Shown one piece after another: positions 9,057-55,194 of a stretch of 64,000 bases of DNA; within the stretch, counting starts at the first letter, position 1; each line of letters begins with the position of its first letter. The translations under genes were made by a program, and so were the position numbers. Below the pieces are notes generated by a model. That model made no database searches. It was given only the letters and a program-made list of their open reading frames with translations, and was not told where the DNA came from. Source of the stretch: an uncultured Rhodospirillaceae bacterium (GTDB taxonomy: Bacteria > Pseudomonadota > Alphaproteobacteria > UBA11136); the NCBI GenBank assembly GCA_964482135.1, contig CAYZWF010000001.1:11362-75361 (forward strand), given 5' to 3'.

Positions 9057-9188
9057 CTATCCAGGCTGGTTGGAGTTAAAGCAATAGTACATAGTTGCTT
9101 GCATGTTCCCGTCAGCCCGGTCCAGGGCTTCGTCGGAAAGCTCGGCCAGGTCTTCGCTCTCGGGTTTTTTCACATCAGTCTTGGGCAT
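9057..9188 (-). CDS. putative RiPP/bacteriocin-like precursor peptide, copy 1 (43 aa): MPKTDVKKPESEDLAELSDEALDRADGNMQATMYYCFNSNQPG
   Basis: The ATG at 9188 is preceded by an AAAGGAAAACCCC SD-like sequence. The conserved 24-aa leader is shared with three paralogues, the C-terminus is unique, and there is a clean stop at 9057-9059. It is absent from the ORF track because it is under 60 aa. Confidence 0.6.
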   Translation of the reverse strand: MPKTDVKKPESEDLAELSDEALDRADGNMQATMYYCFNSNQPG

Positions 9189-9210
9189 GGGGTTTTCCTT
9201 TTAGTGCCAC

Positions 9211-9345
9211 TTACTCAGCCGGTGACGTAGTCCCGCAGTGGCTGGTATTCGTGCATACCTTCGTGATCTCTAAACGGTCCAGGACCTCGTCGCTGAGTTC
9301 AGCCACATCCTCGCTCTCGATTTTTTTCACATCTGTTTTGGGTAT
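9211..9345 (-). CDS. precursor-peptide paralogue, copy 2 (44 aa if translated): [I]PKTDVKKIESEDVAELSDEVLDRLEITKVCTNTSHCGTTSPAE; the start codon is ATA, so it may be a pseudogene
   Basis: The frame is conserved behind an AAAGGGAGGAACCC SD sequence, but the initiator position reads ATA. An in-frame TAA lies 5 codons upstream, so no alternative ATG exists. Confidence 0.4.
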   Translation of the reverse strand: MPKTDVKKIESEDVAELSDEVLDRLEITKVCTNTSHCGTTSPAE

Positions 9346-9367
9346 GGGTTCCTCCCTTTAATGGGGG

Positions 9368-9508
9368 TCAGTCAGCCGGAGCACTATTAGCGCAGGCGCC
9401 ACTGTTGCTGTTGCACCATTGTAAGTTCTCGGCGGTCCGGTCCAGAGCCTCGTCGGCAAGTTCAGCCACATCCTCGCTCTCGATTTTTTTAACGTCTGTC
9501 TTGGGCAT
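9368..9508 (-). CDS. precursor-peptide paralogue, copy 3 (46 aa): MPKTDVKKIESEDVAELADEALDRTAENLQWCNSNSGACANSAPAD
   Basis: The ATG at 9508 is preceded by AAAGGGAGAACCTC. It carries the conserved leader, and the stop is TGA at 9368-9370. Confidence 0.6.
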   Translation of the reverse strand: MPKTDVKKIESEDVAELADEALDRTAENLQWCNSNSGACANSAPAD

Positions 9509-9571
9509 GAGGTTCTCCCTTTAGTGGCGGCTATTCAGCCGGGGACAGCTACGCGCAGCAGCCGACACAGC

Positions 9572-9718
9572 CTATGTTATACACGAGGACGAGGACGCGC
9601 ATCCGCCAACGCTGGCGCATACGATGTACACCTGCGCATCCGAAGTCCGGTCCAGGGCCTCGTCACTGAGTTCGGCCAAGTCTTCGCTCTCGGGTTTTTT
9701 CACATCTGTTTTGGGCAT
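9572..9718 (-). CDS. precursor-peptide paralogue, copy 4 (48 aa): MPKTDVKKPESEDLAELSDEALDRTSDAQVYIVCASVGGCASSSSCIT
   Basis: The ATG at 9718 is preceded by GGGGAGAAAACT. It forms the C-terminal part of ORF-track entry 9572..9904, whose upstream extension crosses non-coding repeat DNA. The core has 3 Cys and a run of Ser. Confidence 0.6.
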   Translation of the reverse strand: MPKTDVKKPESEDLAELSDEALDRTSDAQVYIVCASVGGCASSSSCIT

Positions 9719-9852
9719 AGTTTTCTCCCCGAAAGGTAGAATGAATGTAACGACACACCCATGGGGTTCTCCCCGAAAAGTAGAATGAGTGTAACGACGC
9801 ACCCATCCTAGGCGGAGTCGCCTTCGCGGTGCAAGAAAGCTCTCTTTTTTTA

Positions 9853-10253
9853 GGCCCGACGTACCCTGGTTTAGGGCCGACGTACCCTGGCCCTTGACTC
9901 CCACCCCTCTTTCATGCTAGGAATATTTTCTTAGCTCTTTGACATGATAAAGACGTTTCCCTACCGCGCGGCGGCGCGGCCGGTTGCGCCCATCCTCTTT
10001 TTGGGACCGCAGTCTCTAATTTACCCTGGCCCTTACCGGAGCGATGCTGCGCTGCGGCAGCCCATGTGTACAAATGATGACAAATGTTAACATTTTGGAG
10101 GCCCTGAGGGCATAAATTGTTTGAAATCAAAGACTTGGGCGTAAAAGGATGGGGGTAGTGGGGCGAACAACCCCGGTTTAGGGCTCTTTTTTCGGGGCCG
10201 CCGCACCTGACGTACCCTAGGCTTTTTTTATGGGGCCGACGTACCCTGGCCCC
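9853..10253. repeat. Cluster of at least five REP-like elements (T-run + GG(G)GCCGACGTACCCTGG(CCC), or longer variants with a CAGTCTCT insert)
   Basis: Copies lie at 9853-9869, 9874-9893, 10003-10032 (GGGACCGCAGTCTCTAATTTACCCTGGCCC), 10194-10221 and 10232-10253. Each is preceded by 5-9 T residues. Confidence 0.8.
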
Positions 10254-35986: not shown

Positions 35987-37273
35987 ATGAGCCAGGCTTC
36001 TCCCCTTCGCCGCCACCAATCACCTGCTTCTCCGTCCCCGGGCGCGGCGTCCCCAAATCTGCGGGACTCATTCCTGCGGGAGGTGGCCGCGTGGCGGGTT
36101 TTTGGCGGTAAAACCCGGGAGTCCCGTCTCGGCCAGGTTCCCGTTTTCAGTAACGAGTTCTGGACTTCGCGCCAGCGTCACGCCGCCGCCCTTCACGAAG
36201 TTTCCTACCGCGCCTGTTTCAAGCCCCAGCTTCCGGCTTTTTTCATGGAACGCCTGAGCACGTCCGGGGATGTGGTCTACGACCCCTTCATGGGGCGCGG
36301 CACCACGGTGATCGAGGCCATGTTACGGGGGCGGGTCCCCATGGGGTGTGACGTCAATCCCCTGTGCCGCCTGTTGGCGGAACCGAGATTACGCCCGCCT
36401 CATGTGGCGCAGGTGGAAGAGCGGCTTGACGAGCTTGATCTGGACCGGGCGGTGGAGGTGGAGGACAACCTGCGCGTCTTTTATCATCCCGACACCCTGC
36501 GCCAGATTGCCAATCTTCGCGGCTATCTCCTGGGGCGCGAAGACCGGGGGGAGTTGGATGACGTGGATGGCTGGATTCGCATGGTGGCCACCAACCGGCT
36601 CACCGGCCATTCGGGCGGGTTTTTCTCGGTTTACACCATGCCGCCCAACCAGGCCGTTTCACTGGCGTCCCAGCGCAAGATCAACGCAAGAAGGGAGCAG
36701 AGCCCGGAATTTCGCCCGCTCAAACCGCTGATTCTCAAGAAGACCCGATCTCTGTTGCGTGGCCTTGAGATTCCAGAAGATGCAAAAGCCTGCCGGGAAC
36801 AGGCGGCGCTGTTCACTGGATCGGCTCAGGCGACGCCGGGAATTGCCGATGGCTCGGTGGCGCTGATCGTCACTTCGCCGCCTTTTCTCGACACCGTGGA
36901 CTACGGCAAGGACAATTGGCTGCGTTGCTGGTTCAACGGTATCGATGCCGCCGGGCTGGAAATCGCCGCCTTCCGGTCATTACAGGCATGGACGATGTTC
37001 ATGAAGTCGGCTTTCGCGGAATTTTCCAGAGTCCTCGCCCCCGGTGGATTCATGGCCTTCGAAGTGGGGGAAGTGCGGCGCGGCAAGGTGCGCCTGGAGG
37101 AGGCAGTCCTCGAAGCGGCGGCGGCTCTTCCCGCATCTCGCCGGCTCGACCCGGTCTGTGTCCTCATCAACGCCCAGGACTTTACCAAGACCTCCAATTG
37201 CTGGGGTGTTCACAACAATACGGGCGGCACCAACTCCAACCGTATCGTGGTCTTCGAGAAGCCAAGCCTTTAG
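35987..37273 (+). CDS. putative SAM-dependent DNA methyltransferase (N6-adenine/N4-cytosine type), orphan
   Basis: Motif I DVVYDPFMGRGTT (FxGxG) at about aa 95 and motif IV LIVTSPPFLD (SPPF) at about aa 290 give an alpha-like motif order. No restriction endonuclease gene lies adjacent. Confidence 0.6.
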   Translation: MSQASPLRRHQSPASPSPGAASPNLRDSFLREVAAWRVFGGKTRESRLGQVPVFSNEFWTSRQRHAAALHEVSYRACFKPQLPAFFMERLSTSGDVVYDPFMGRGTTVIEAMLRGRVPMGCDVNPLCRLLAEPRLRPPHVAQVEERLDELDLDRAVEVEDNLRVFYHPDTLRQIANLRGYLLGREDRGELDDVDGWIRMVATNRLTGHSGGFFSVYTMPPNQAVSLASQRKINARREQSPEFRPLKPLILKKTRSLLRGLEIPEDAKACREQAALFTGSAQATPGIADGSVALIVTSPPFLDTVDYGKDNWLRCWFNGIDAAGLEIAAFRSLQAWTMFMKSAFAEFSRVLAPGGFMAFEVGEVRRGKVRLEEAVLEAAAALPASRRLDPVCVLINAQDFTKTSNCWGVHNNTGGTNSNRIVVFEKPSL

Positions 37274-38208
37274 GCTGGGGGGCTGGCCCGATCTTGCGGT
37301 GATCCGTGCCCGCGCGCCCAACGGGATGCCAGGAAAGCGCCGCTGAGGTTGTGCCAGACGCTGAACAGGGCGCCGGGGAGCGCGGCCGCGGCTCCGAAAT
37401 ACTGGGTGGCAAGCGCCACCGCGAGGCCCGAGTTCTGCATCCCCACCTCGATGGCCATGGTGCGCCGGATACGCCGGTCCTGGATCAACAGCGCCGTCAG
37501 CCCATAGCCCGCACCCAGTCCCAGCAGGTTGTGCAACATCACCGCCGCCACCAGAGGCAGCGCCACACCCGCCAGCATTCCCGCGTTGGCGCCGACAATG
37601 ATGGCAATGATGACGACGATGGCGGCCACCGAAAGCAACGGGAAGACGGCCTTGATGCGGTCCAGCCGTTCGCCGCAAAAATGGTTGACCACCCCACCGA
37701 GAACCACCGGGACGATGATAATCTTGAGCACGCTCATCATCATGGCCACCACCGGCACCGGCACTTCGCGGCCGATATAGGCCCAACCCAGGAGCGGCGT
37801 GGCGAAGACGGCCAACAGGGTGGAGACGGCGGTAAGGGTGATGGATAGCGCCACGTCGCCGCGGGCGAGGTAACAGATCACATTGGACGCCGTGCCACCG
37901 GGGCAGCTTCCCACCAGAATGATGCCCGCGGCAAGCATGGCCGGAAGCCCCAGAATCTGGGCCAGAATCCAGCCCATAAGCGGCATCAAGAGGAATTGCA
38001 GTCCGACGCCAAGGGCCACCGTTTTCGGGGTTTTCAGGACGCGGGCGAAATCCCCCGCCGTCAGCCCCAGCCCCATGCCGAACATGACCACGCTGAGCAG
38101 GGGCACGATGGCCGGCTTTAGCGACGCCCATGAATCGGGCTGGACATAGGCCCAGAGCGAGAACAACACGGCCCATAGGGGAAAGAGGGAGGTCAGGCGG
38201 GAAATCAT
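37270..38208 (-). CDS. bile acid:sodium symporter (BASS) family transporter
   Basis: About 10-TM protein with the LFPLWAVLFSLWAY...GMGLGLTAGDF pattern of the BASS family. Confidence 0.7.
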   Translation of the reverse strand: MISRLTSLFPLWAVLFSLWAYVQPDSWASLKPAIVPLLSVVMFGMGLGLTAGDFARVLKTPKTVALGVGLQFLLMPLMGWILAQILGLPAMLAAGIILVGSCPGGTASNVICYLARGDVALSITLTAVSTLLAVFATPLLGWAYIGREVPVPVVAMMMSVLKIIIVPVVLGGVVNHFCGERLDRIKAVFPLLSVAAIVVIIAIIVGANAGMLAGVALPLVAAVMLHNLLGLGAGYGLTALLIQDRRIRRTMAIEVGMQNSGLAVALATQYFGAAAALPGALFSVWHNLSGAFLASRWARGHGSPQDRASPPA

Positions 38209-38354
38209 TGGGGAAGCAGATGGTCCATGACGCGTGGGGAATTAAAGTCAATTTTAGCTAAAGTTTTGAGCAACTTAGTCATATTTATTATTATTTTATT
38301 TACAAAACAGCCCGCATAATAAGTAGCGTATTTTCATATTAGCGGGTTTTTATC

Positions 38355-38966
38355 GTGGAGATTCTATACCCAGACGCCAAGAATAAATTTTCCCGTTTCA
38401 GGGAAGATTTGCAGCACATCGTCAATCAGCCGGGTGTCGAGGAGATGCGCCCTTGCCCCGGATGCGTAGAGCCCTGTGCCTGCTCCGGTTCCATCAGTTG
38501 TTCCTGTGGATGTTCCGCGGAATGCGACTCGGCGCCCCGGGTCATGTCCTCGGAGCCGGAGAATTTCCTTATTGAATCAGGCATCGTTCCGCTGGTCTAT
38601 GAGTTCTATTGCCTGCGCTCCTGCCATCCCTGCTGGTCTTGTGAAGGGCATAATGATTCCGACGGCAATATCTACCGCCTTCCCCAGGTCTGGTTTTTTA
38701 CCAGCTCGGTTATTTATCCCCGCCTCATCGACGAACATATCCACGCCCTGCACCACAAGGGAAAGCTGGGAACACCCTGGCATGTTTGCCTGACTTACGC
38801 GCCGAGCGAGAGCCCCTATTCGGCATTCGCACTCAAACCGGATCTGGCCATGAGCGTCAGACCACCGCTGGAAAGCCTCCAGAGGGATACCATGGCTATC
38901 GCCCATGGATTTTCAGACAGCATCCACGCCAAGGCGGAGGAATATCTTGCGGGAAGCCATTCTTGA
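38355..38966 (+). CDS. hypothetical Cys-rich protein
   Basis: 203 aa. It carries an N-proximal cluster PCPGCVEPCACSGSISCSCGCSAEC and further Cys/His motifs (CLRSCHPCWSCEGH). It is preceded by a strongly AT-rich promoter-like region at 38225-38350. Confidence 0.45.
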   Translation: MEILYPDAKNKFSRFREDLQHIVNQPGVEEMRPCPGCVEPCACSGSISCSCGCSAECDSAPRVMSSEPENFLIESGIVPLVYEFYCLRSCHPCWSCEGHNDSDGNIYRLPQVWFFTSSVIYPRLIDEHIHALHHKGKLGTPWHVCLTYAPSESPYSAFALKPDLAMSVRPPLESLQRDTMAIAHGFSDSIHAKAEEYLAGSHS

Positions 38967-39111
38967 AAAATCTGGCGCCGAAAGAGTGCGGGCGTTTGCT
39001 CCATTTTTTCTGGTGGAGGGGTTGATAGGGAGCCCTACGGACCCTTGCCCTTTGGCGCTGTTCGCATGAGCCAGCATAATGTGTCGGTGGTCCGTGAACC
39101 GGCGGAGAAAA

Positions 39112-39876
39112 ATGAATCATCCCCAGATTAAACAACAAGTGATTGATGCCCTGCTGCGCAATCCTGAGAAACCCGTCACGGGAGAAATAAAAGGGTGCCG
39201 TTTTGCGGCGCATATCGGTATCCCCAATTATTCCGAGAAGGTTCTCGCCCACTATCCCGAAGCCGCCTCACTGGGCCTCAGCGAAATCTGCCGCCGCACG
39301 GAGGTGCCGTATTTCCATTTCCAGCATTTCGGCCTTTTCTGTGTTTTCGAAAGCCCCGCTAAACTTCACTTATACGACGAGGAAAGAACACTCGAAGAAG
39401 ACGTGCGGGAAATGGTCCATAGTTTTGGGCCGGTTATCTTCCAGAATGCCTATCTTGACGCGGTGGGCGGCAAGGAGGACCAGCGGAATATCTTTTCGCA
39501 TCTGAATTTTCATTTTGACCGGGGATCAAACCAGCCCACCCAGTATTCCCTGTTCTCGCGGTCGCCCACCGATCCCGTCCAAAGCGCGCCGCGAAAATCC
39601 TCCACTTTATATATTTCCAACGTGGTGGCGCATCTGCAGTTTTGCCGGGAACATGGCCTCTCGCCTGAAAAAGAGCCGGGAAGGCCGCGCTATGACATTT
39701 TTCATAATGAAAAGATGAAAAAGATGATTGGGCAGGTGGCTCTGGAACATGCCTGGGACGCGCCGAAAAACACGGGCGAAGTAGCCATCATCCACAACCG
39801 CCCCCTCCTGCATGCCAGTTATTATCGGAAAAAGGGTGTGCGCGGCTATCCCATCGGCGTGCGTTATCTGAAGTAA
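39112..39876 (+). CDS. hypothetical protein, possibly an Fe(II)/2-oxoglutarate oxygenase-like fold (tentative)
   Basis: Co-oriented 146 nt downstream of the Cys-rich ORF. It contains NFHFDRG (H-x-D) and a distal IIHNRPLLHA...R motif, with spacing resembling the PhyH/TauD facial triad plus Arg. Confidence 0.35.
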   Translation: MNHPQIKQQVIDALLRNPEKPVTGEIKGCRFAAHIGIPNYSEKVLAHYPEAASLGLSEICRRTEVPYFHFQHFGLFCVFESPAKLHLYDEERTLEEDVREMVHSFGPVIFQNAYLDAVGGKEDQRNIFSHLNFHFDRGSNQPTQYSLFSRSPTDPVQSAPRKSSTLYISNVVAHLQFCREHGLSPEKEPGRPRYDIFHNEKMKKMIGQVALEHAWDAPKNTGEVAIIHNRPLLHASYYRKKGVRGYPIGVRYLK

Positions 39877-39893: not shown

Positions 39894-40655
39894 TTAGGTT
39901 TTTTCGCGCATTTCCTTGGCGGTGACGCCTCCGGTGGTGCCGTCGGCGTAGGATGCGTAGCGGACGATAAAATAGTCGCGGGGGCGGGAGGTCGTCTTCA
40001 CTGATTCCCGGTCCCTCAGCGCGGTGATCCACGCGCAGAGGCGGGCGTATTGGGAGGGAATGACCACGTCACGGTAATGTTCCAGCGCCACGAAACGCTC
40101 AAAAAAAGGCGCATAACTGGCATCCACCAGGGAAAAGTTCTTTCCCATCCAGTAGGGGCCGGAACCAGGGGCGCCGGACAGCGCCTCCGTCTCAATGAAG
40201 CGGAGATGGTCCAGCATAAGGTTCCGGTATTCGTTTTGTTTGTCCGTATCTTGTTCCAGCAGCAGTTTGTAGAAAGTGACGGTGAAGCGGTTGTCGCAGA
40301 AGTCGATCCAGATTCGCGCCCTGGCGCGGTCTGCCGGGTCGCCCGGCATCAATGGCGGCTCGGGAAACACCTCGTCGAGATATTCGTTGATGATGGCGCT
40401 TTCATAGATGCATGTTTCACCGTGCCGCAGCACCGGCACCTTGCTATAGGGTGAAATCCGGAGGAACCAGTCAGGCTTGTTCTTGAGGTCAATTTCACTG
40501 AGGGTAAAATCCACCTCTTTTTCCAACAGCACGATACGGCTGCGCTGGGCAAAGGGGCAGACATCGGCGCTGATGATTTCCACCTCCGACTGGCTCCGGT
40601 CCGTGCCGGAATGGGTTTCGGGGGTGTCTTTATTCCGCTTCTTGCCGTCGGTCAT
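39894..40655 (-). CDS. glutathione S-transferase family protein (thioredoxin-like N-domain with CPFAQR active site)
   Basis: ISADVCPFAQRSRIVL...VPVLRHGETCIYESAIINEYLDE is an omega/glutaredoxin-like GST N-terminal domain. There is an alpha-helical C-domain. Confidence 0.65.
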   Translation of the reverse strand: MTDGKKRNKDTPETHSGTDRSQSEVEIISADVCPFAQRSRIVLLEKEVDFTLSEIDLKNKPDWFLRISPYSKVPVLRHGETCIYESAIINEYLDEVFPEPPLMPGDPADRARARIWIDFCDNRFTVTFYKLLLEQDTDKQNEYRNLMLDHLRFIETEALSGAPGSGPYWMGKNFSLVDASYAPFFERFVALEHYRDVVIPSQYARLCAWITALRDRESVKTTSRPRDYFIVRYASYADGTTGGVTAKEMREKT

Positions 40656-42099: not shown

Positions 42100-42801
42100 C
42101 TATTCAAAGCCTTCCACGGGCAGAGGCAGGTCACTCTTCCAGGCTTCCAGCCGCTGTATATAGGGCGGCTCTCCATTATCCAGAACCCATGAATCAACGG
42201 CGAAACGTTTGCCGCTGACCGTTTCCTCGATCTGTGCGCCCCAGTGCGGTTCGAACAGACGGGGTGTCCGAAAAGCGGCATCGAGTACGCGATGCCATGC
42301 CAAGAGGCCCCGTTGTTCAAGGAGGATGAGAAAACGCGTGGTGTTCCGGGATTCATCCACGCAATCCATCTGCCCTTCGATATCGCCGTAATGGCGGGGG
42401 GGAATCAGCGATAACGAGGAGGTTCTGACCTGATTGTGTGGCTGGGATGAGGGCGCGAAGCTGTTGGGATTACGCCCCTTGTCACGATGAACGGATGTCT
42501 GTTTCCCGGCAATACGCTCAAACAGGGCGACGGCCTCCCGGATTTGTTCGCGCTCAATACGCGAGGTCTTGGCCGTGGGCTCGAACAGGCGCGTGATATC
42601 AAGAAGTTGTTCCCGCGAAAGTGTGACGGTGCTTTGCGCCTTGCAGTCCAAGTTGTGGCAGATGGTGATGGTGTGCGTGTTTGCAGCAGGGGGAACCCGA
42701 ACCTCTTCACGCGGTGTGACGCGACCGTTCGCCGATGGGCCAAGAAAAAAACTGGTAAACAGAATGAACGTCGCCAGGTGATAGGAAAGAAGCTTCATCA
42801 T
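42100..42801 (-). CDS. hypothetical secreted/lipoprotein, paralogue of 20210..20854
   Basis: Signal peptide MMKLLSYHLATFILFTSFFLG. It shares CxNLDC, DCVDESRNTT and FAVDSWVLDNG motifs with the 20210 ORF. Confidence 0.5.
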   Translation of the reverse strand: MMKLLSYHLATFILFTSFFLGPSANGRVTPREEVRVPPAANTHTITICHNLDCKAQSTVTLSREQLLDITRLFEPTAKTSRIEREQIREAVALFERIAGKQTSVHRDKGRNPNSFAPSSQPHNQVRTSSLSLIPPRHYGDIEGQMDCVDESRNTTRFLILLEQRGLLAWHRVLDAAFRTPRLFEPHWGAQIEETVSGKRFAVDSWVLDNGEPPYIQRLEAWKSDLPLPVEGFE

Positions 42802-42943
42802 GGACTGTTTCAAGACGCCTGTTGACAAATCTGGTAGAACAATCCGGGGCAAAGGAATCATAGCACTTCATTTTTTGTTAAGGAATCCCCTGCAAGGCTC
42901 CTTTTTCAGTCGGTCCTTATCCTGAGGTTCCTGCCGTTCACGG

Positions 42944-43306
42944 ATGAAGTGGGGCGGCAAAACGGGGGAAAGCGCTGTGGCGACGGAAATCTACATCTGT
43001 AAGGAAGGCCAAAGCCTTAAACAGGGGAAGATCGAATACGGCGAGATCGACTCTAAGGATGAAGCCCAGTCCGATGCTGTGGCGCGCTGTAAGCGGGACC
43101 GGAGCATCGCCAAAATCGCCTATTACAGCGTCAACGAAAACGGCGATTTCCGCATTTTCTTCACCTATAACAATCCCAACCCAGCCTCGGAAAAAAAGAC
43201 TCCGAAACCGGACGGAGAAGCCGCGCCCAAGAAAAAGAAGAAGGCAAAGCCCAAGAAGAAAAAGAAAAAATCCCTGCTGTCCCGGCTCCTTTCCCCATTC
43301 TCCTGA
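42944..43306 (+). CDS. hypothetical protein with poly-Lys C-terminal tail
   Basis: 120 aa. The C-terminal PKKKKKAKPKKKKKKSLLSRLL is encoded by an A-rich tract. Coding status is uncertain. Confidence 0.3.
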   Translation: MKWGGKTGESAVATEIYICKEGQSLKQGKIEYGEIDSKDEAQSDAVARCKRDRSIAKIAYYSVNENGDFRIFFTYNNPNPASEKKTPKPDGEAAPKKKKKAKPKKKKKKSLLSRLLSPFS

Positions 43307-43358
43307 GCGCCCCCCAGTGATTCTAAAGGACGCCCCGGCTCATCAGTCCTGAGCCGTT

Positions 43359-44498
43359 CTAGCCGCCAAGCGGCAATGTGTAGACGGGCTGGGTGCTCTG
43401 CACGTCGCCCGATTGCAGGGCGAAAAGATGATGGAGAAGGGAAAAGGTGGTTTTCGATGTCAGGTCGGAATCGGCGATATAAAACCAATGTCCCCGATAT
43501 TCCACGGATACGGCAGCACGGTCCGGCTGGGCGGCTTGGGAGCGCACCCGGAGCAGACCGCCCGTGACCTGATCCCAGTCAAAGACCTCGCCATCGGCGG
43601 TGCGGGTGACCGTGACCCTTCCCGCCTCGATATCTTCGGGCGGCACCTTCACACCCTGTGAGAGGTAATAGAGAACTCCCATGAGAGAGCGGGTCTGGAT
43701 GCCGATACGATCATGCCTGCCGGAAATATAGTTGGGAGTTACCACGTAAAAAGGTGCATCCGGTGAAAGCTCAAGGAGCTTCTGAAGCTCCCGGGTCTCG
43801 GTAGTGGTTTCTCCCTTCGCGGTAAGGCGCATGACGATGCGCGAGGAGCCCCGGTGTTCCACCGCCCCGGGGGAAGGATGTTCGAGCCTGATATTCAGGC
43901 CGTCTTTGACCTGGAGGTTTCGCATCAGATCAGTCAGGCGCTGGAATGTCTTGTATTCGGGTGCGGTGGCCGGCGTTGGCCCCGCCGCCCGCGGCGCATT
44001 CCTGATTTTATTGACCCGCTGTGCGCACATCTCGAACACACGTTCCACGCTCCACCCGGAATTATAAAGCAGCAGCAGGGTTTCCAAGGAAATAGGGGAC
44101 AGCAGCCGTTTTACGAACTGTTCCCCCTGAAGGGGTGAATAGGTGACGGTGGGGTTTTCCTCGTATTCTCCGCTGGGCCCGATCTCGAAGATGTTGGATT
44201 TGCCCCCACCATGGGTAAAGGCGCCGGCCAGCCCCGCGTTATAGGTGAACTGGGTGGCCACCGAACTGACCTCAAGGAAGAAGGGGGTGTCCCGGTATTT
44301 CAGGCGTACCAGATTAAGGAGCATCTGCTCCTCGCTGGTTTTCTGAATGGCTATATTATAGGGATTGCGATTGCCGTGAACCGTGTCCGGCCCGAAATAG
44401 GCGCATCCCGAAAGCAGGGAAACAACTGTCCCCAATAACATTCCGGTGTAAAACCGCCGTCGACTGCGATCCTTTTTTACCCGTACACCAATTTCCAT
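43359..44498 (-). CDS. hypothetical lipoprotein (about 380 aa)
   Basis: Start taken at MEIGVRVKK, followed by a TM/signal segment and an LSGC lipobox. There is no recognisable catalytic motif. The ORF-track 474-aa version is a 5' extension. Confidence 0.5.
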   Translation of the reverse strand: MEIGVRVKKDRSRRRFYTGMLLGTVVSLLSGCAYFGPDTVHGNRNPYNIAIQKTSEEQMLLNLVRLKYRDTPFFLEVSSVATQFTYNAGLAGAFTHGGGKSNIFEIGPSGEYEENPTVTYSPLQGEQFVKRLLSPISLETLLLLYNSGWSVERVFEMCAQRVNKIRNAPRAAGPTPATAPEYKTFQRLTDLMRNLQVKDGLNIRLEHPSPGAVEHRGSSRIVMRLTAKGETTTETRELQKLLELSPDAPFYVVTPNYISGRHDRIGIQTRSLMGVLYYLSQGVKVPPEDIEAGRVTVTRTADGEVFDWDQVTGGLLRVRSQAAQPDRAAVSVEYRGHWFYIADSDLTSKTTFSLLHHLFALQSGDVQSTQPVYTLPLGG

Positions 44499-44663
44499 CG
44501 CCTGCCTTTGCCCCTTTTGCCTGTCCCGAATAGAAGCCGCAAAGCCCCTCAAAGGCAAGGGGGCAGGGAAGGAATACAGACTGGAGCTTTTCCAGGTTGA
44601 CAGTGAATAGGGGCGTTCTATAGTCCCTGTTCTCAGTGTGGTTGCATAAGGAAAATCAACCCC

Positions 44664-44990
44664 ATGTCTCCCAGCCGCTATCTGGATAGGCCCAAGCGCA
44701 CTTACGAGGAAGCCGTGCGCGCAAAAGACACGTGCAACAGGGTTCGTGATGCGCGTGGTGACGGCTCCGATGAGACGGGACACGAAAGTCCCTTCTCGCG
44801 CCTCGGGGGGGCATGGCTGTCGGGTGTCGTGCTGGTGTTTGTTCTTGCAGCCCTTGCCGGATTTATTGTCCTGCCCTCTTTTATTCCCGAGGAAACCGTT
44901 ACCGCCGAGGGGATCACCACCGAGGAAATTCAGCGGTTACAGACCATCGCGCCGGCGGCGGGTCCTGGCGCTCTTCCCGATCCCAATTGA
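44664..44990 (+). CDS. hypothetical small membrane protein (108 aa)
   Basis: Single TM segment (AWLSGVVLVFVLAALAGFIVL). Its TGA stop overlaps the proposed TTG start of the downstream DUF547 gene (TTGA), suggesting translational coupling. Confidence 0.4.
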   Translation: MSPSRYLDRPKRTYEEAVRAKDTCNRVRDARGDGSDETGHESPFSRLGGAWLSGVVLVFVLAALAGFIVLPSFIPEETVTAEGITTEEIQRLQTIAPAAGPGALPDPN

Positions 44991-54321: not shown

Positions 54322-55194
54322 TTGTGGGATGTTAATAGTTTCGAGAAAGGACTAAATCGTATTGTCAACGTCATTCGGAAAATCTTTTCCGTTACTCCTT
54401 CCCTACACATTACCGAACTTAGGCAAGGATTAGGCAGATACCACCGCATAGCATTCGTTCCGCACAGTCGGGTGTTACTAGAAATATGCCGTCAACTCGA
54501 TTTTCTTGAGGTTAGGGAAAATCAAGTGAACACCATTTCTGGCAGGAGGCTTCCCAGCACTCTAGTGGGGATTGAGTCAACGCTGATCAAAGCGTTTCAG
54601 GGAAAACCGATCCTTTCCAGAGAAGCGCTTGAAACCAATGCCTTGGCTTTAGGAATGAATCGATCGAGCTTTTACGTAATGATTGGTTATTCACCAATAG
54701 TAGTCCGATTAGCTAGAGGGGTATATGCCCCTATTGGCGCAGATATTCCACCCGGTGTTGTTGAAGCAACAAAACCATCATTTCAAAGGAAGCGGGTTGT
54801 TGTTGATTTTGGCTGGAATGCTAACAGATATCTGTGGATCGCTTATCGTTTATCCAAAGCTATGCTAAGCGGCAACCAGGTCAATGTGCCAACCTCCGTA
54901 AAAGAGTTTATACAGGGAGAATGGCCTATGGAGACGACTAGTCAGGGAAAAGTCGCAGTCGTTTCGATAAATGGTACCAGTGTATCGGGCTTTTATACGC
55001 TTCTAGATAGACGCGGGGCCGAGTGTGGGGACACTCTAATTTTGGTGTTTGATACAAAAGATCATTTGTTTCGGATGGAGCTAGGCAGCGATGAATTGGT
55101 CGAGCGATGGAAAAATAGCGAACTTAAATTAACAGACGATCAGTTACTTGACCTTGATTCAGATAGTGAAGAAAGGGAAGCCCCCGCGGGTTAA
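54322..55194 (+). CDS. hypothetical protein in an AT-rich insertion (an ORF of about 290 aa, and the frame stays open upstream to 54148)
   Basis: Visibly lower GC than the flanks, with no recognised domain and an acidic C-terminus (DLDSDSEEREAP). The start is uncertain: TTG at 54322, and no in-frame ATG upstream. Confidence 0.45.
   Translation: MWDVNSFEKGLNRIVNVIRKIFSVTPSLHITELRQGLGRYHRIAFVPHSRVLLEICRQLDFLEVRENQVNTISGRRLPSTLVGIESTLIKAFQGKPILSREALETNALALGMNRSSFYVMIGYSPIVVRLARGVYAPIGADIPPGVVEATKPSFQRKRVVVDFGWNANRYLWIAYRLSKAMLSGNQVNVPTSVKEFIQGEWPMETTSQGKVAVVSINGTSVSGFYTLLDRRGAECGDTLILVFDTKDHLFRMELGSDELVERWKNSELKLTDDQLLDLDSDSEEREAPAG

Follow-up and report, generated by a model that had tools for sequence, protein, structure and literature searches.

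A predicted TauD-superfamily oxygenase and its Cys-rich partner protein: a probable two-gene enzymatic module from an uncultured Rhodospirillaceae bacterium

Introduction

TauD-type oxygenases matter both in nutrient scavenging and in natural-product chemistry, and new clades of these enzymes regularly bring new reactions. TauD-type enzymes usually work without a dedicated partner, and TauD, AtsK and TfdA (Pfam PF02668) are not known to require a partner gene. Within the same superfamily, the gamma-butyrobetaine and trimethyllysine hydroxylases are clavaminate-synthase-like oxygenases with an N-terminal zinc-binding domain. Here, we analysed a pair of open reading frames (ORFs) in a stretch of 64,000 nucleotides (nt) from an uncultured Rhodospirillaceae bacterium (contig CAYZWF010000001.1, positions 11,362 to 75,361), in the following referred to as the window. 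The second of the two, ORF2 (39112-39876, plus strand; 254 amino acids (aa)), encodes a predicted divergent oxygenase of the TauD/TfdA superfamily and, unlike TauD, AtsK and TfdA, is accompanied by a dedicated partner gene, ORF1 (38355-38966, plus strand; 203 aa, GTG start), which encodes a Cys-rich cytoplasmic protein. The association of such an oxygenase with a small Cys-rich, putatively metal-binding module recalls the gamma-butyrobetaine and trimethyllysine hydroxylases; there, the zinc domain is fused in cis (DUF971), whereas ORF1 is a separate protein with no such Pfam match. The ORF2 clade is not covered by current family libraries, and its partner comes from an equally undescribed Cys-rich family.

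For ORF1 itself, a further point of comparison is TYW3 (Taw3), a tRNA-wyosine N4-methyltransferase of class IX among the S-adenosylmethionine (SAM) methyltransferases. To our knowledge, it is an archaeal and eukaryotic protein, and bacteria are without wyosine. Taw3 was described as an N-terminal extension and a RAGNYA core with an SHS2 insert; besides the motif (S/T)xSSCxGR, it has an invariant Asp in the extension and, where a RAGNYA strand ends, an invariant His, residues implicated in SAM binding (PMC5311493; PMC2034487). The eukaryotic wybutosine pathway includes, in addition to TYW3, the 2-oxoglutarate/Fe(II) hydroxylase TYW5 (PMC2938197).

Results and discussion

ORF1 and ORF2 form a linked gene pair

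Scanning one genome per species revealed 27 loci with ORF2 relatives, located in Alphaproteobacteria (Rhodospirillales, Kiloniellaceae, Thalassospiraceae, Pelagibius) and in one Pseudomonadales bin. Together with metagenomic contigs and the window, and after removal of duplicates, these amounted to 30 independent loci. ORF1 adjoins ORF2 in 24 of them, in three arrangements: co-directional and upstream (15 loci), divergent (8) or downstream (1). The profile matches of the two genes lie ~5-76 nt apart in most other co-directional loci, and in one case the called genes overlap by 4 nt (L009). All-against-all clustering of the neighbouring genes showed no other family in more than 7 loci, and the families that came closest reflected synteny in one subclade, where the recurrent neighbours are of housekeeping type (an indolepyruvate-oxidoreductase-like gene, an epimerase and pyruvate kinase). 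Likewise, no family occurred in more than 3 in a Pfam scan of 91 flanking ORFs, and neither approach revealed a conserved transporter, regulator or further enzyme beside the pair. This linkage in three gene orders, with no other shared neighbour, indicates a self-contained two-gene module, and ORF1 and ORF2 very probably function as a unit. A first reading of the window's sequence (hereafter the original prediction) had proposed a two-gene cassette, an idea that these loci bear out more strongly than its author had reason to state.

Single loci show variations of this arrangement. On one short contig (L045 2-2447), two genes directly precede the pair, one for a sulfotransferase and one for another 2-oxoglutarate oxygenase, of P4H type (2OG-FeII_Oxy_3, E 1e-5). 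An example of ORF2 decay is found in L044 (1676-1837), where an intact ORF1 is followed by only the last 38 ORF2 codons (E 2e-14 to the family profile) and then by an EamA transporter gene, and on a third contig an unnamed 253-aa gene overlaps the end of ORF1. The cultured carriers among the 27 genome loci are Pelagibius litoralis DSM 21314 and Aestuariispira insulae CECT 8488; with these two organisms at hand, the compact system is tractable for experiment.

In the window, the two genes are co-oriented as proposed. ORF1 carries both Cys strings quoted in the original prediction verbatim, ORF2 contains NFHFDRG, IIHNRPLLHA and YYRKKGVRG, and all other sequence elements quoted there were likewise found in place. 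Searches of Pfam and NCBIfam brought neither protein above any threshold, the only hint being a ~13-bit TauD match for ORF2, and searches of PDB chains with both proteins and their profiles returned nothing relevant at the sequence level. PADLOC models of anti-phage defence gave no match for either protein at E<=1. ORF2 has 96 homologues of 35-100% identity, all of which lack a Pfam domain and carry either no name or the label 'hypothetical'. For ORF1, a word-indexed search retrieved 10 homologues, and an exhaustive profile search 329 cluster representatives at E<=1e-3, among them 184 at E<=1e-30. Comparison with a related contig (L001) yielded dN/dS ratios of 0.14 for ORF1 and 0.11 for ORF2, next to 0.17 for the flanking bile-acid/Na+ symporter-family (SBF) gene; both ORF1 and ORF2 are under purifying selection.

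ORF2 is a predicted TauD/TfdA-superfamily oxygenase

The AlphaFold model of ORF2, based on a 60-sequence alignment (pLDDT 93.6, pTM 0.91), predicts a double-stranded beta-helix of the TauD type. Foldseek comparison of this model with the PDB returned 70 matches at E<=1e-3, with probabilities of up to 1.0 and a best E of 1.7e-5, and the best 50 of the 70 were all TauD, AtsK, Rv3406, TfdA/AAD/RdpA-like or IsnB structures (probability 0.97-1.00). The original prediction had suggested an oxygenase-like fold of PhyH/TauD type: the fold was recovered by the modelling and its TauD/TfdA part stands, whereas a PhyH-type assignment was rejected because every fold match was TauD-type. In addition, sub-threshold Pfam TauD matches were present in 17 of the 60 family members (best E 2.5e-4).

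Residue conservation was counted over 60 homologues for ORF2 and over 65 diverse homologues for ORF1. The predicted facial triad of ORF2 consists of H134 and D136 in an H134-F-D136 motif (39511-39519, plus strand), the proximal His and the carboxylate, which align with H99 and D101 of TauD, and of the distal His H234 within N-R-x3-H-A (39811-39813, plus strand), which aligns with TauD H255. These residues are kept in 59, 60 and 60 of the 60 homologues, far beyond chance, and the 2-His-1-carboxylate triad that had been proposed from an H-x-D...H...R arrangement is real; of the two His in IIHNRPLLHA, the ligand is the second (H234). The first is Asp in most homologues. T165 of an SST motif (39604-39606, plus strand; 59/60) is the presumed contact to the C5-carboxylate of 2-oxoglutarate, and aligns with T126 in the GGDT motif of TauD, whose contact to 2-oxoglutarate is established. 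R251 (39862-39864, plus strand; 59/60), located on the last predicted strand (248-253) within 'GVRYL', is the presumed 2-oxoglutarate-binding Arg; we infer that it is equivalent to TauD R266, in a tail that hhalign does not align reliably. R137, S164, N229 and Y237 are each invariant (60/60).

The alignment to TauD was obtained with hhalign against a reference set of E. coli tauD (strain MG1655) and four diverse TauD-family sequences from a PDB search. It is statistically weak (P=0.03) and places NFH134-F-D136 on NWH99-T-D101 and SST165 on GDT126; in its extended form, the stretch around H234 (EVAIIHNRPLLHAS) falls on the stretch around TauD H255 (DIAIWDNRVTQHYA). Aligning the ORF2 family with E. 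coli TauD alone, or with a TauD set >=80% identical, gave meaningless alignments that were discarded.

Taken together, ORF2 shares with TauD, AtsK and TfdA a predicted double-stranded beta-helix, the H-x-D...H triad, the Thr of GGDT/SST and the (D)NRxxxH motif, and it has an Arg on its last strand. In contrast to these enzymes, it is ~30 residues shorter (254 aa compared to 283 aa in E. coli TauD) and has conserved residues of its own outside the compared TauD motifs, namely R137, S146, R150, R161, Y237, Y238, R239, Y246 and Y252. Because ORF2 stays below the Pfam gathering score and matches no NCBIfam model, it is to be regarded as a superfamily relative rather than as a member of the curated family, and its sub-threshold score, together with the conserved Arg and Tyr residues peculiar to it, argues for a new family within the TauD superfamily. 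As judged from model and residue pattern, ORF2 is a divergent TauD/TfdA-superfamily Fe(II)/2-oxoglutarate oxygenase with an intact predicted catalytic apparatus.

ORF1 combines a Cys knuckle with a conserved alpha/beta domain

In the AlphaFold model of ORF1 (pLDDT 82, pTM 0.79), an N-terminal helix (residues 8-24) is followed by an irregular segment with the Cys residues (25-59), two helices, a strand (91-96) that ends in a W-S-C-E-G-H loop, and a beta-beta-alpha-beta-beta-alpha unit. The Cys-rich knuckle (residues 34-57; 38454-38525, plus strand) has the form C34-x2-C37...C53-x3-C57 with the variable C41, C43, C49 and C51 in between. C34, C37, C53 and C57 are each present in 63-64 of the 65 homologues, compared to 47-49 for C41, C49 and C51 and 25 for C43, and the N-terminal 60 residues hold 8 Cys both in the window protein and as the family median. 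Weak zinc-ribbon-type or metallothionein-like Pfam matches appeared in a few single family members. The CxxC...CxxxC knuckle is presumed to bind a metal, either as an iron-sulfur site or, probably, as a zinc site.

The best-conserved part of ORF1 is its C-terminal alpha/beta domain and not the Cys tract. A near-invariant loop, W94-S-C96-E-G-H99 (38634-38651, plus strand), is a candidate active or ligand-binding site, with W94 in all 65 homologues, S95 in 64, C96 in 63, E97 in 60, G98 in 64 and H99 in 63. P110, F114 and W142 are likewise found in 65/65 and D178 in 63-64/65, and E74 is kept in 61, with Asp in the other 4. The Cys motifs of ORF1 that had caught attention in the original prediction are real and far beyond chance, with C34, C37, C53, C57, C96 and H99 each kept in 63-64/65, whereas the extreme Cys density is partly lineage-specific, with only the four N-terminal Cys and C96 near-universal.

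The extent of ORF1 differs between annotations. In the public annotation of the window's own genome (L040-L043, 3433-3855), ORF1 is a protein of 140 aa that starts from Met64, omitting the Cys-rich N-terminus (38355-38543). Many ORF1 family representatives in a library of 1.8 billion proteins similarly start near profile position 64 and point to a systematic miscall of the start codon. ORF1 homologues open with M-[KR]-I, and the upstream part is conserved as protein with the four Cys near-invariant; this conservation at the protein level indicates that the long, GTG-initiated ORF1 is the gene. Public calls thereby often remove the Cys-rich third of the protein and hide the most distinctive feature of the family. 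For ORF2, ATG 39079 was rejected as a start, since a public identical protein (P0001, 254 aa) and all homologues begin at ATG 39112; in L001, a 1-nt indel between the two positions puts the two ATGs out of frame.

ORF1 resembles TYW3 in topology and lacks part of its signature

The topology of ORF1 fits the description of Taw3 if the SHS2 insert is absent. As a TYW3 reference we used four PDB chains (1TLJ, 2DRV, 2QG3, 2DVK), recovered at E 1e-26 to 6e-8 with a human TYW3 query. The best local hhalign alignment between ORF1 and this reference comprises 28 ungapped columns (P=0.055) and pairs I-E74-x-x-I-x-P-L-V...W-S-C96-E-G-H99 with V-D-x-D-I-x-P-L-L...S-S-C-S-G-R. Its score of 18.3 exceeds those of all 100 column-shuffled controls (mean 12.0, max 17.9), but the reversed profile reaches 17.6, so that the score alone is not significant. 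The Pfam TYW3 model matched none of 11 + 65 ORF1 family members even at E<=10, and Foldseek lent no support to TYW3 membership.

Comparing the two families feature by feature, the predicted topology of ORF1 resembles the N-terminal extension and RAGNYA core of TYW3, and in the best local alignment the C96 loop falls on SSCxGR and E74 on the TYW3 Asp. ORF1 differs in having no equivalent of the SHS2 insert, in its extra N-terminal helix and Cys knuckle, and in the Glu that 61 of 65 members carry at the position of the TYW3 Asp. The signature (S/T)xSSCxGR is not preserved either: ORF1 reads P-C-W-S-C-E-G-H, in which Ser, Cys and Gly are kept, Arg is replaced by His and the leading Ser/Thr is absent. 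At the strand end where TYW3 has its invariant His, ORF1 has no conserved His and instead conserves P110-x-V-W-F. Both the exchange of Arg for His and the lack of a counterpart to the TYW3 His speak against a conserved SAM-dependent methyltransferase function, and SAM binding by ORF1 appears doubtful. Three weak and partly independent indications agree, namely the ranking of folds, the topology and the placement of the best alignment on catalytic residues, and they make a remote link between ORF1 and the TYW3 scaffold plausible; we regard such a relationship as about as probable as its opposite, and membership in the TYW3 family is not established. If the partner does descend from the TYW3 scaffold, a rare methyltransferase fold would extend into bacteria with altered catalytic residues.

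Proposed function of the pair

We consider it reasonably probable that ORF1 and ORF2 constitute a self-contained enzymatic module, in which the oxygenase works with a dedicated partner. ORF2 would hold iron through H134, D136 and H234 and 2-oxoglutarate through T165 and R251, use O2 and 2-oxoglutarate to generate an Fe(IV)-oxo species, and with it hydroxylate or otherwise oxidise an unactivated C-H bond. In ORF1, the Cys4 knuckle (probably with zinc) would buttress the alpha/beta domain, which displays a near-invariant polar cluster of E74, S95, C96, E97, H99 and D178. Most probably, ORF1 would bind the same substrate that ORF2 oxidises, or process it chemically at the Cys/His loop, so that ORF1 and then ORF2 would carry out two consecutive steps on one molecule. 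The division of labour between the two proteins, the class of substrate and metal binding by ORF1 are all inferred. RAGNYA-type folds, which the ORF1 domain resembles, usually bind nucleotides, nucleic acids or peptides; with no conserved transporter, regulator or enzyme beside the pair, this fold type makes a ubiquitous substrate (a nucleotide, an RNA base or a peptide-like metabolite) more likely than a niche nutrient.

Several observations weigh against this proposal. The TM-scores of ORF2 to TauD-type structures reach only 0.31-0.42, at 9-14% identity, and ORF2 misses the gathering score of Pfam TauD (PF02668) with 13.2-13.5 compared to 27 bits. In six of the 30 ORF2 loci, the DNA retrieved contains no ORF1, although one of the two flanks is very short in L028 and L030, which are among the six, and several ORF1 homologues occur without ORF2 (L003, L005, L007, L046). 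The preference for a ubiquitous substrate, moreover, derives solely from the lack of conserved neighbours and an analogy of fold. Three alternatives remain serious, namely nutrient scavenging, a protein substrate and a metallochaperone.

In the scavenging alternative, ORF2 would release sulfite, sulfate or another group from an organosulfonate, a sulfate ester or a similar small anion imported by a transporter encoded nearby. TauD, AtsK and Rv3406 are indeed the closest structures, the conserved Arg and Tyr residues of ORF2 suggest an anionic substrate, and the divergent promoter region common to the pair and an SBF-type organic-anion transporter gene in the window is strongly conserved. Further loci have an SBF homologue (L033), a sulfatase (L011), a sulfotransferase (L045) or EamA transporters nearby, but such transport or sulfur neighbours recur in no more than 2-3 loci, the identity of ORF2 to TauD/AtsK-type enzymes is only 10-14%, and a Cys-rich partner would be unexpected in a sulfur-starvation system; we rate this alternative as rather unlikely. 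ORF1 might instead be the substrate or carrier of ORF2, hydroxylated on one of its residues or on a group attached to C96, along the lines of the tailoring cassette of the original prediction. This would agree with the tight linkage of the two genes and with the activity of some oxygenases of this superfamily on substrates tethered to carrier proteins. Conservation in ORF1 extends to a whole polar cluster and a compact fold instead of a single target site, searches for a carrier-protein or phosphopantetheine-type domain in it were negative, and each gene is also found alone (ORF1 without ORF2 in several lineages, ORF2 without ORF1 nearby), a pattern more in keeping with two enzymes than with an enzyme and its obligate substrate, which leaves a protein substrate unlikely. 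The same low standing is given to an accessory metalloprotein, i.e. ORF1 as an iron or zinc chaperone, or as an iron-sulfur or rubredoxin-like redox protein, that loads or re-reduces the iron of ORF2. For such a role speak the 8 Cys in the N-terminal 60 residues with their CxxC and CxxxC knuckles, and the CxxH of C96 and H99 as a possible further metal site; the stronger conservation of the C-terminal domain and the occurrence of ORF1 without ORF2 speak against it, as does the usual independence of TauD-type enzymes from a partner.

A more specific version of the enzymatic module would be a bacterial base- or nucleotide-modifying system. Here, a TYW3-descended ORF1 that lost SHS2 and gained a zinc knuckle would recognise RNA, DNA or a nucleotide and act via its Cys/His loop, and ORF2 would then hydroxylate, or oxidatively remove, a group on the same base. 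The resemblance to the wybutosine pathway is one of concept and an analogy only, with a TYW3-fold protein and a 2-oxoglutarate oxygenase acting on one substrate; TYW5 is JmjC-type and not TauD-type, the eukaryotic genes are not conserved neighbours, and an RNA substrate would be conjecture. We hold this version to be quite improbable; were it true, bacteria not known to make wyosine derivatives would have their own equivalent of the wybutosine scheme, in which TYW3 is combined with a 2-oxoglutarate hydroxylase.

Organisation of the locus and its intergenic regions

The 5' neighbour of the pair is the SBF transporter gene (37270-38208, minus strand), which diverges from ORF1. The two are separated by an AT-rich intergenic region of 146 nt (38209-38354), which probably contains both promoters. 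On the 3' side, ORF2 is followed by a convergent glutathione-S-transferase (GST) gene and then by a gene for a UbiX-type flavoprotein. The spacer between ORF1 and ORF2 (38967-39111) has a GGAG ~7 nt 5' of ATG 39112 and a weak promoter-like site (39052-39080), and shows 86% identity with indels to the related contig L001.

The original prediction had pointed to an abrupt drop in GC content at about 38225. This drop is real, from 0.64 (38100-38199) to 0.34 and 0.38 (38200-38399) in windows of 100 nt, and is confined mainly to the intergenic stretch; within the genes GC returns to 0.46-0.60. The steep fall coincides with the SBF-ORF1 intergenic region, and the coding parts are modestly low, with GC 0.557 and GC at third codon positions (GC3) 0.65 for ORF1 and GC 0.53 and GC3 0.62 for ORF2, compared to 0.607 for GC of the whole window and 0.70-0.84 for GC3 of most of its genes. 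Many genes within 38-48 kb of the window are of similarly low GC. The AT-rich stretch had also been called promoter-like, a label that stands on weaker ground than its composition: it contains one candidate sigma-70-type promoter (TTGAGC-17-TATTAT; 38266-38294, plus strand; 9/12 match), and a scan for such sites was not enriched over shuffles (2 sites compared to 1.7 +/- 1.3 expected by chance). A search of 38209-38354 against Rfam matched no family.

Comparison with L001 points to a conserved upstream part of this region. The segment 38195-38370 aligns at 94% identity, and 38209-38307 shows only ~3 mismatches when counted by hand from the alignment, whereas the last ~45 nt before the ORF1 GTG are much less conserved. 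As 38209-38307 is far more conserved than the synonymous sites of the flanking genes (dS 0.24-0.54), we suggest that it represents a constrained regulatory region shared by the SBF transporter gene and ORF1. A hairpin with a T-run at ~38314-38350, noticed by eye as a potential attenuator, falls into the least conserved intergenic stretch and was dropped.

Age of the pair in this genome

The original prediction had further considered the cassette to be possibly acquired horizontally, which would make the pair an AT-rich islet. ORF2 lies 8 and ORF1 5 GC points below the window mean, which is at the high end of the range among 31 loci but not exceptional: across these, the mean GC deficit relative to the flanks is 0.030 for ORF2 (seen in 26 of 31 loci) and 0.027 for ORF1 (in 21 of 25), and the GC of the pair follows that of the host over 0.50-0.68. 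In addition, the pair occupies the identical site, flanked by the same genes, in related contigs that come from other samples, at a protein identity of 86-93% and with comparable synonymous divergence (0.30-0.54). Searches of plasmids and viral contigs yielded no copies of the pair, and a search for an empty site via relatives of the SBF transporter found only homologues of <=62% identity without synteny. At the window site no integrase, tRNA or flanking repeat was noticed, no dedicated scan having been made. The distribution of the pair is patchy, and transposase genes (DDE_3/HTH, IS1595-type, Transposase_mut) lie within a few kb of the pair or of ORF1 on two unrelated contigs (L011 1506-2566 and 9610-10275; L046 361-1222). 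Together with the diversity of genomic contexts and the three gene orders, these transposases suggest mobility over long timescales; a recent acquisition in this genome is only weakly supported and has, in our estimation, a low probability.

The neighbouring GST gene (39894-40655, compared with L001 4590-5351) has a dS of 0.08 and a dN/dS of 0.44, next to a dS of 0.24-0.54 for ORF1, ORF2 and SBF, which hints at recombination or at uneven divergence along the stretch.

A distant peptide array and other features of the window

About 29 kb upstream of the pair, the window contains four tandem small ORFs (9057-9904, minus strand) in four 128-nt repeat units 157-210 nt apart, which share the leader MPKTDVKK[PI]ESEDLAELSDEALDR and differ in their variable, Cys-containing tails. 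They lie between a class IV aminotransferase gene and the cytochrome c maturation genes (CcmH, CcmF) and look like precursors of ribosomally synthesised and post-translationally modified peptides (RiPPs); the flanking genes scanned include no obvious maturase. The original prediction had called a link between array and cassette tempting but, rightly, saw nothing in the sequence to connect them, and tailoring of these peptides by the pair would have in its favour that both share the 64-kb window and that the peptides have Cys-containing cores. The link was not borne out and was rejected: in tblastn searches of 40 other loci, no related leader peptide was detected within ~6 kb of the pair (all E >0.1), neighbour clustering and the Pfam scan showed no recurrent RiPP-type enzyme beside the pair, and the intervening genes include housekeeping types, such as those for cytochrome c maturation, which directly follow the array, and a glutamate-synthase-small-subunit-like gene that immediately precedes the pair. 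We regard such a role as extremely improbable. One of these small ORFs is directly preceded by two tandem 44-nt copies of 86% identity (9716-9803).

Two further features were noted elsewhere in the window. Three consecutive ORFs at 42103-44783 (253, 120 and 474 aa as listed; GC 0.53-0.57) match no Pfam family and are present, again without annotation, in public contigs of the same organism. An ORF of 290 aa at 54322-55191 (plus strand), likewise with no Pfam family, has a GC of 0.449 and a GC3 of 0.41 and is a much stronger candidate for foreign DNA than the pair.

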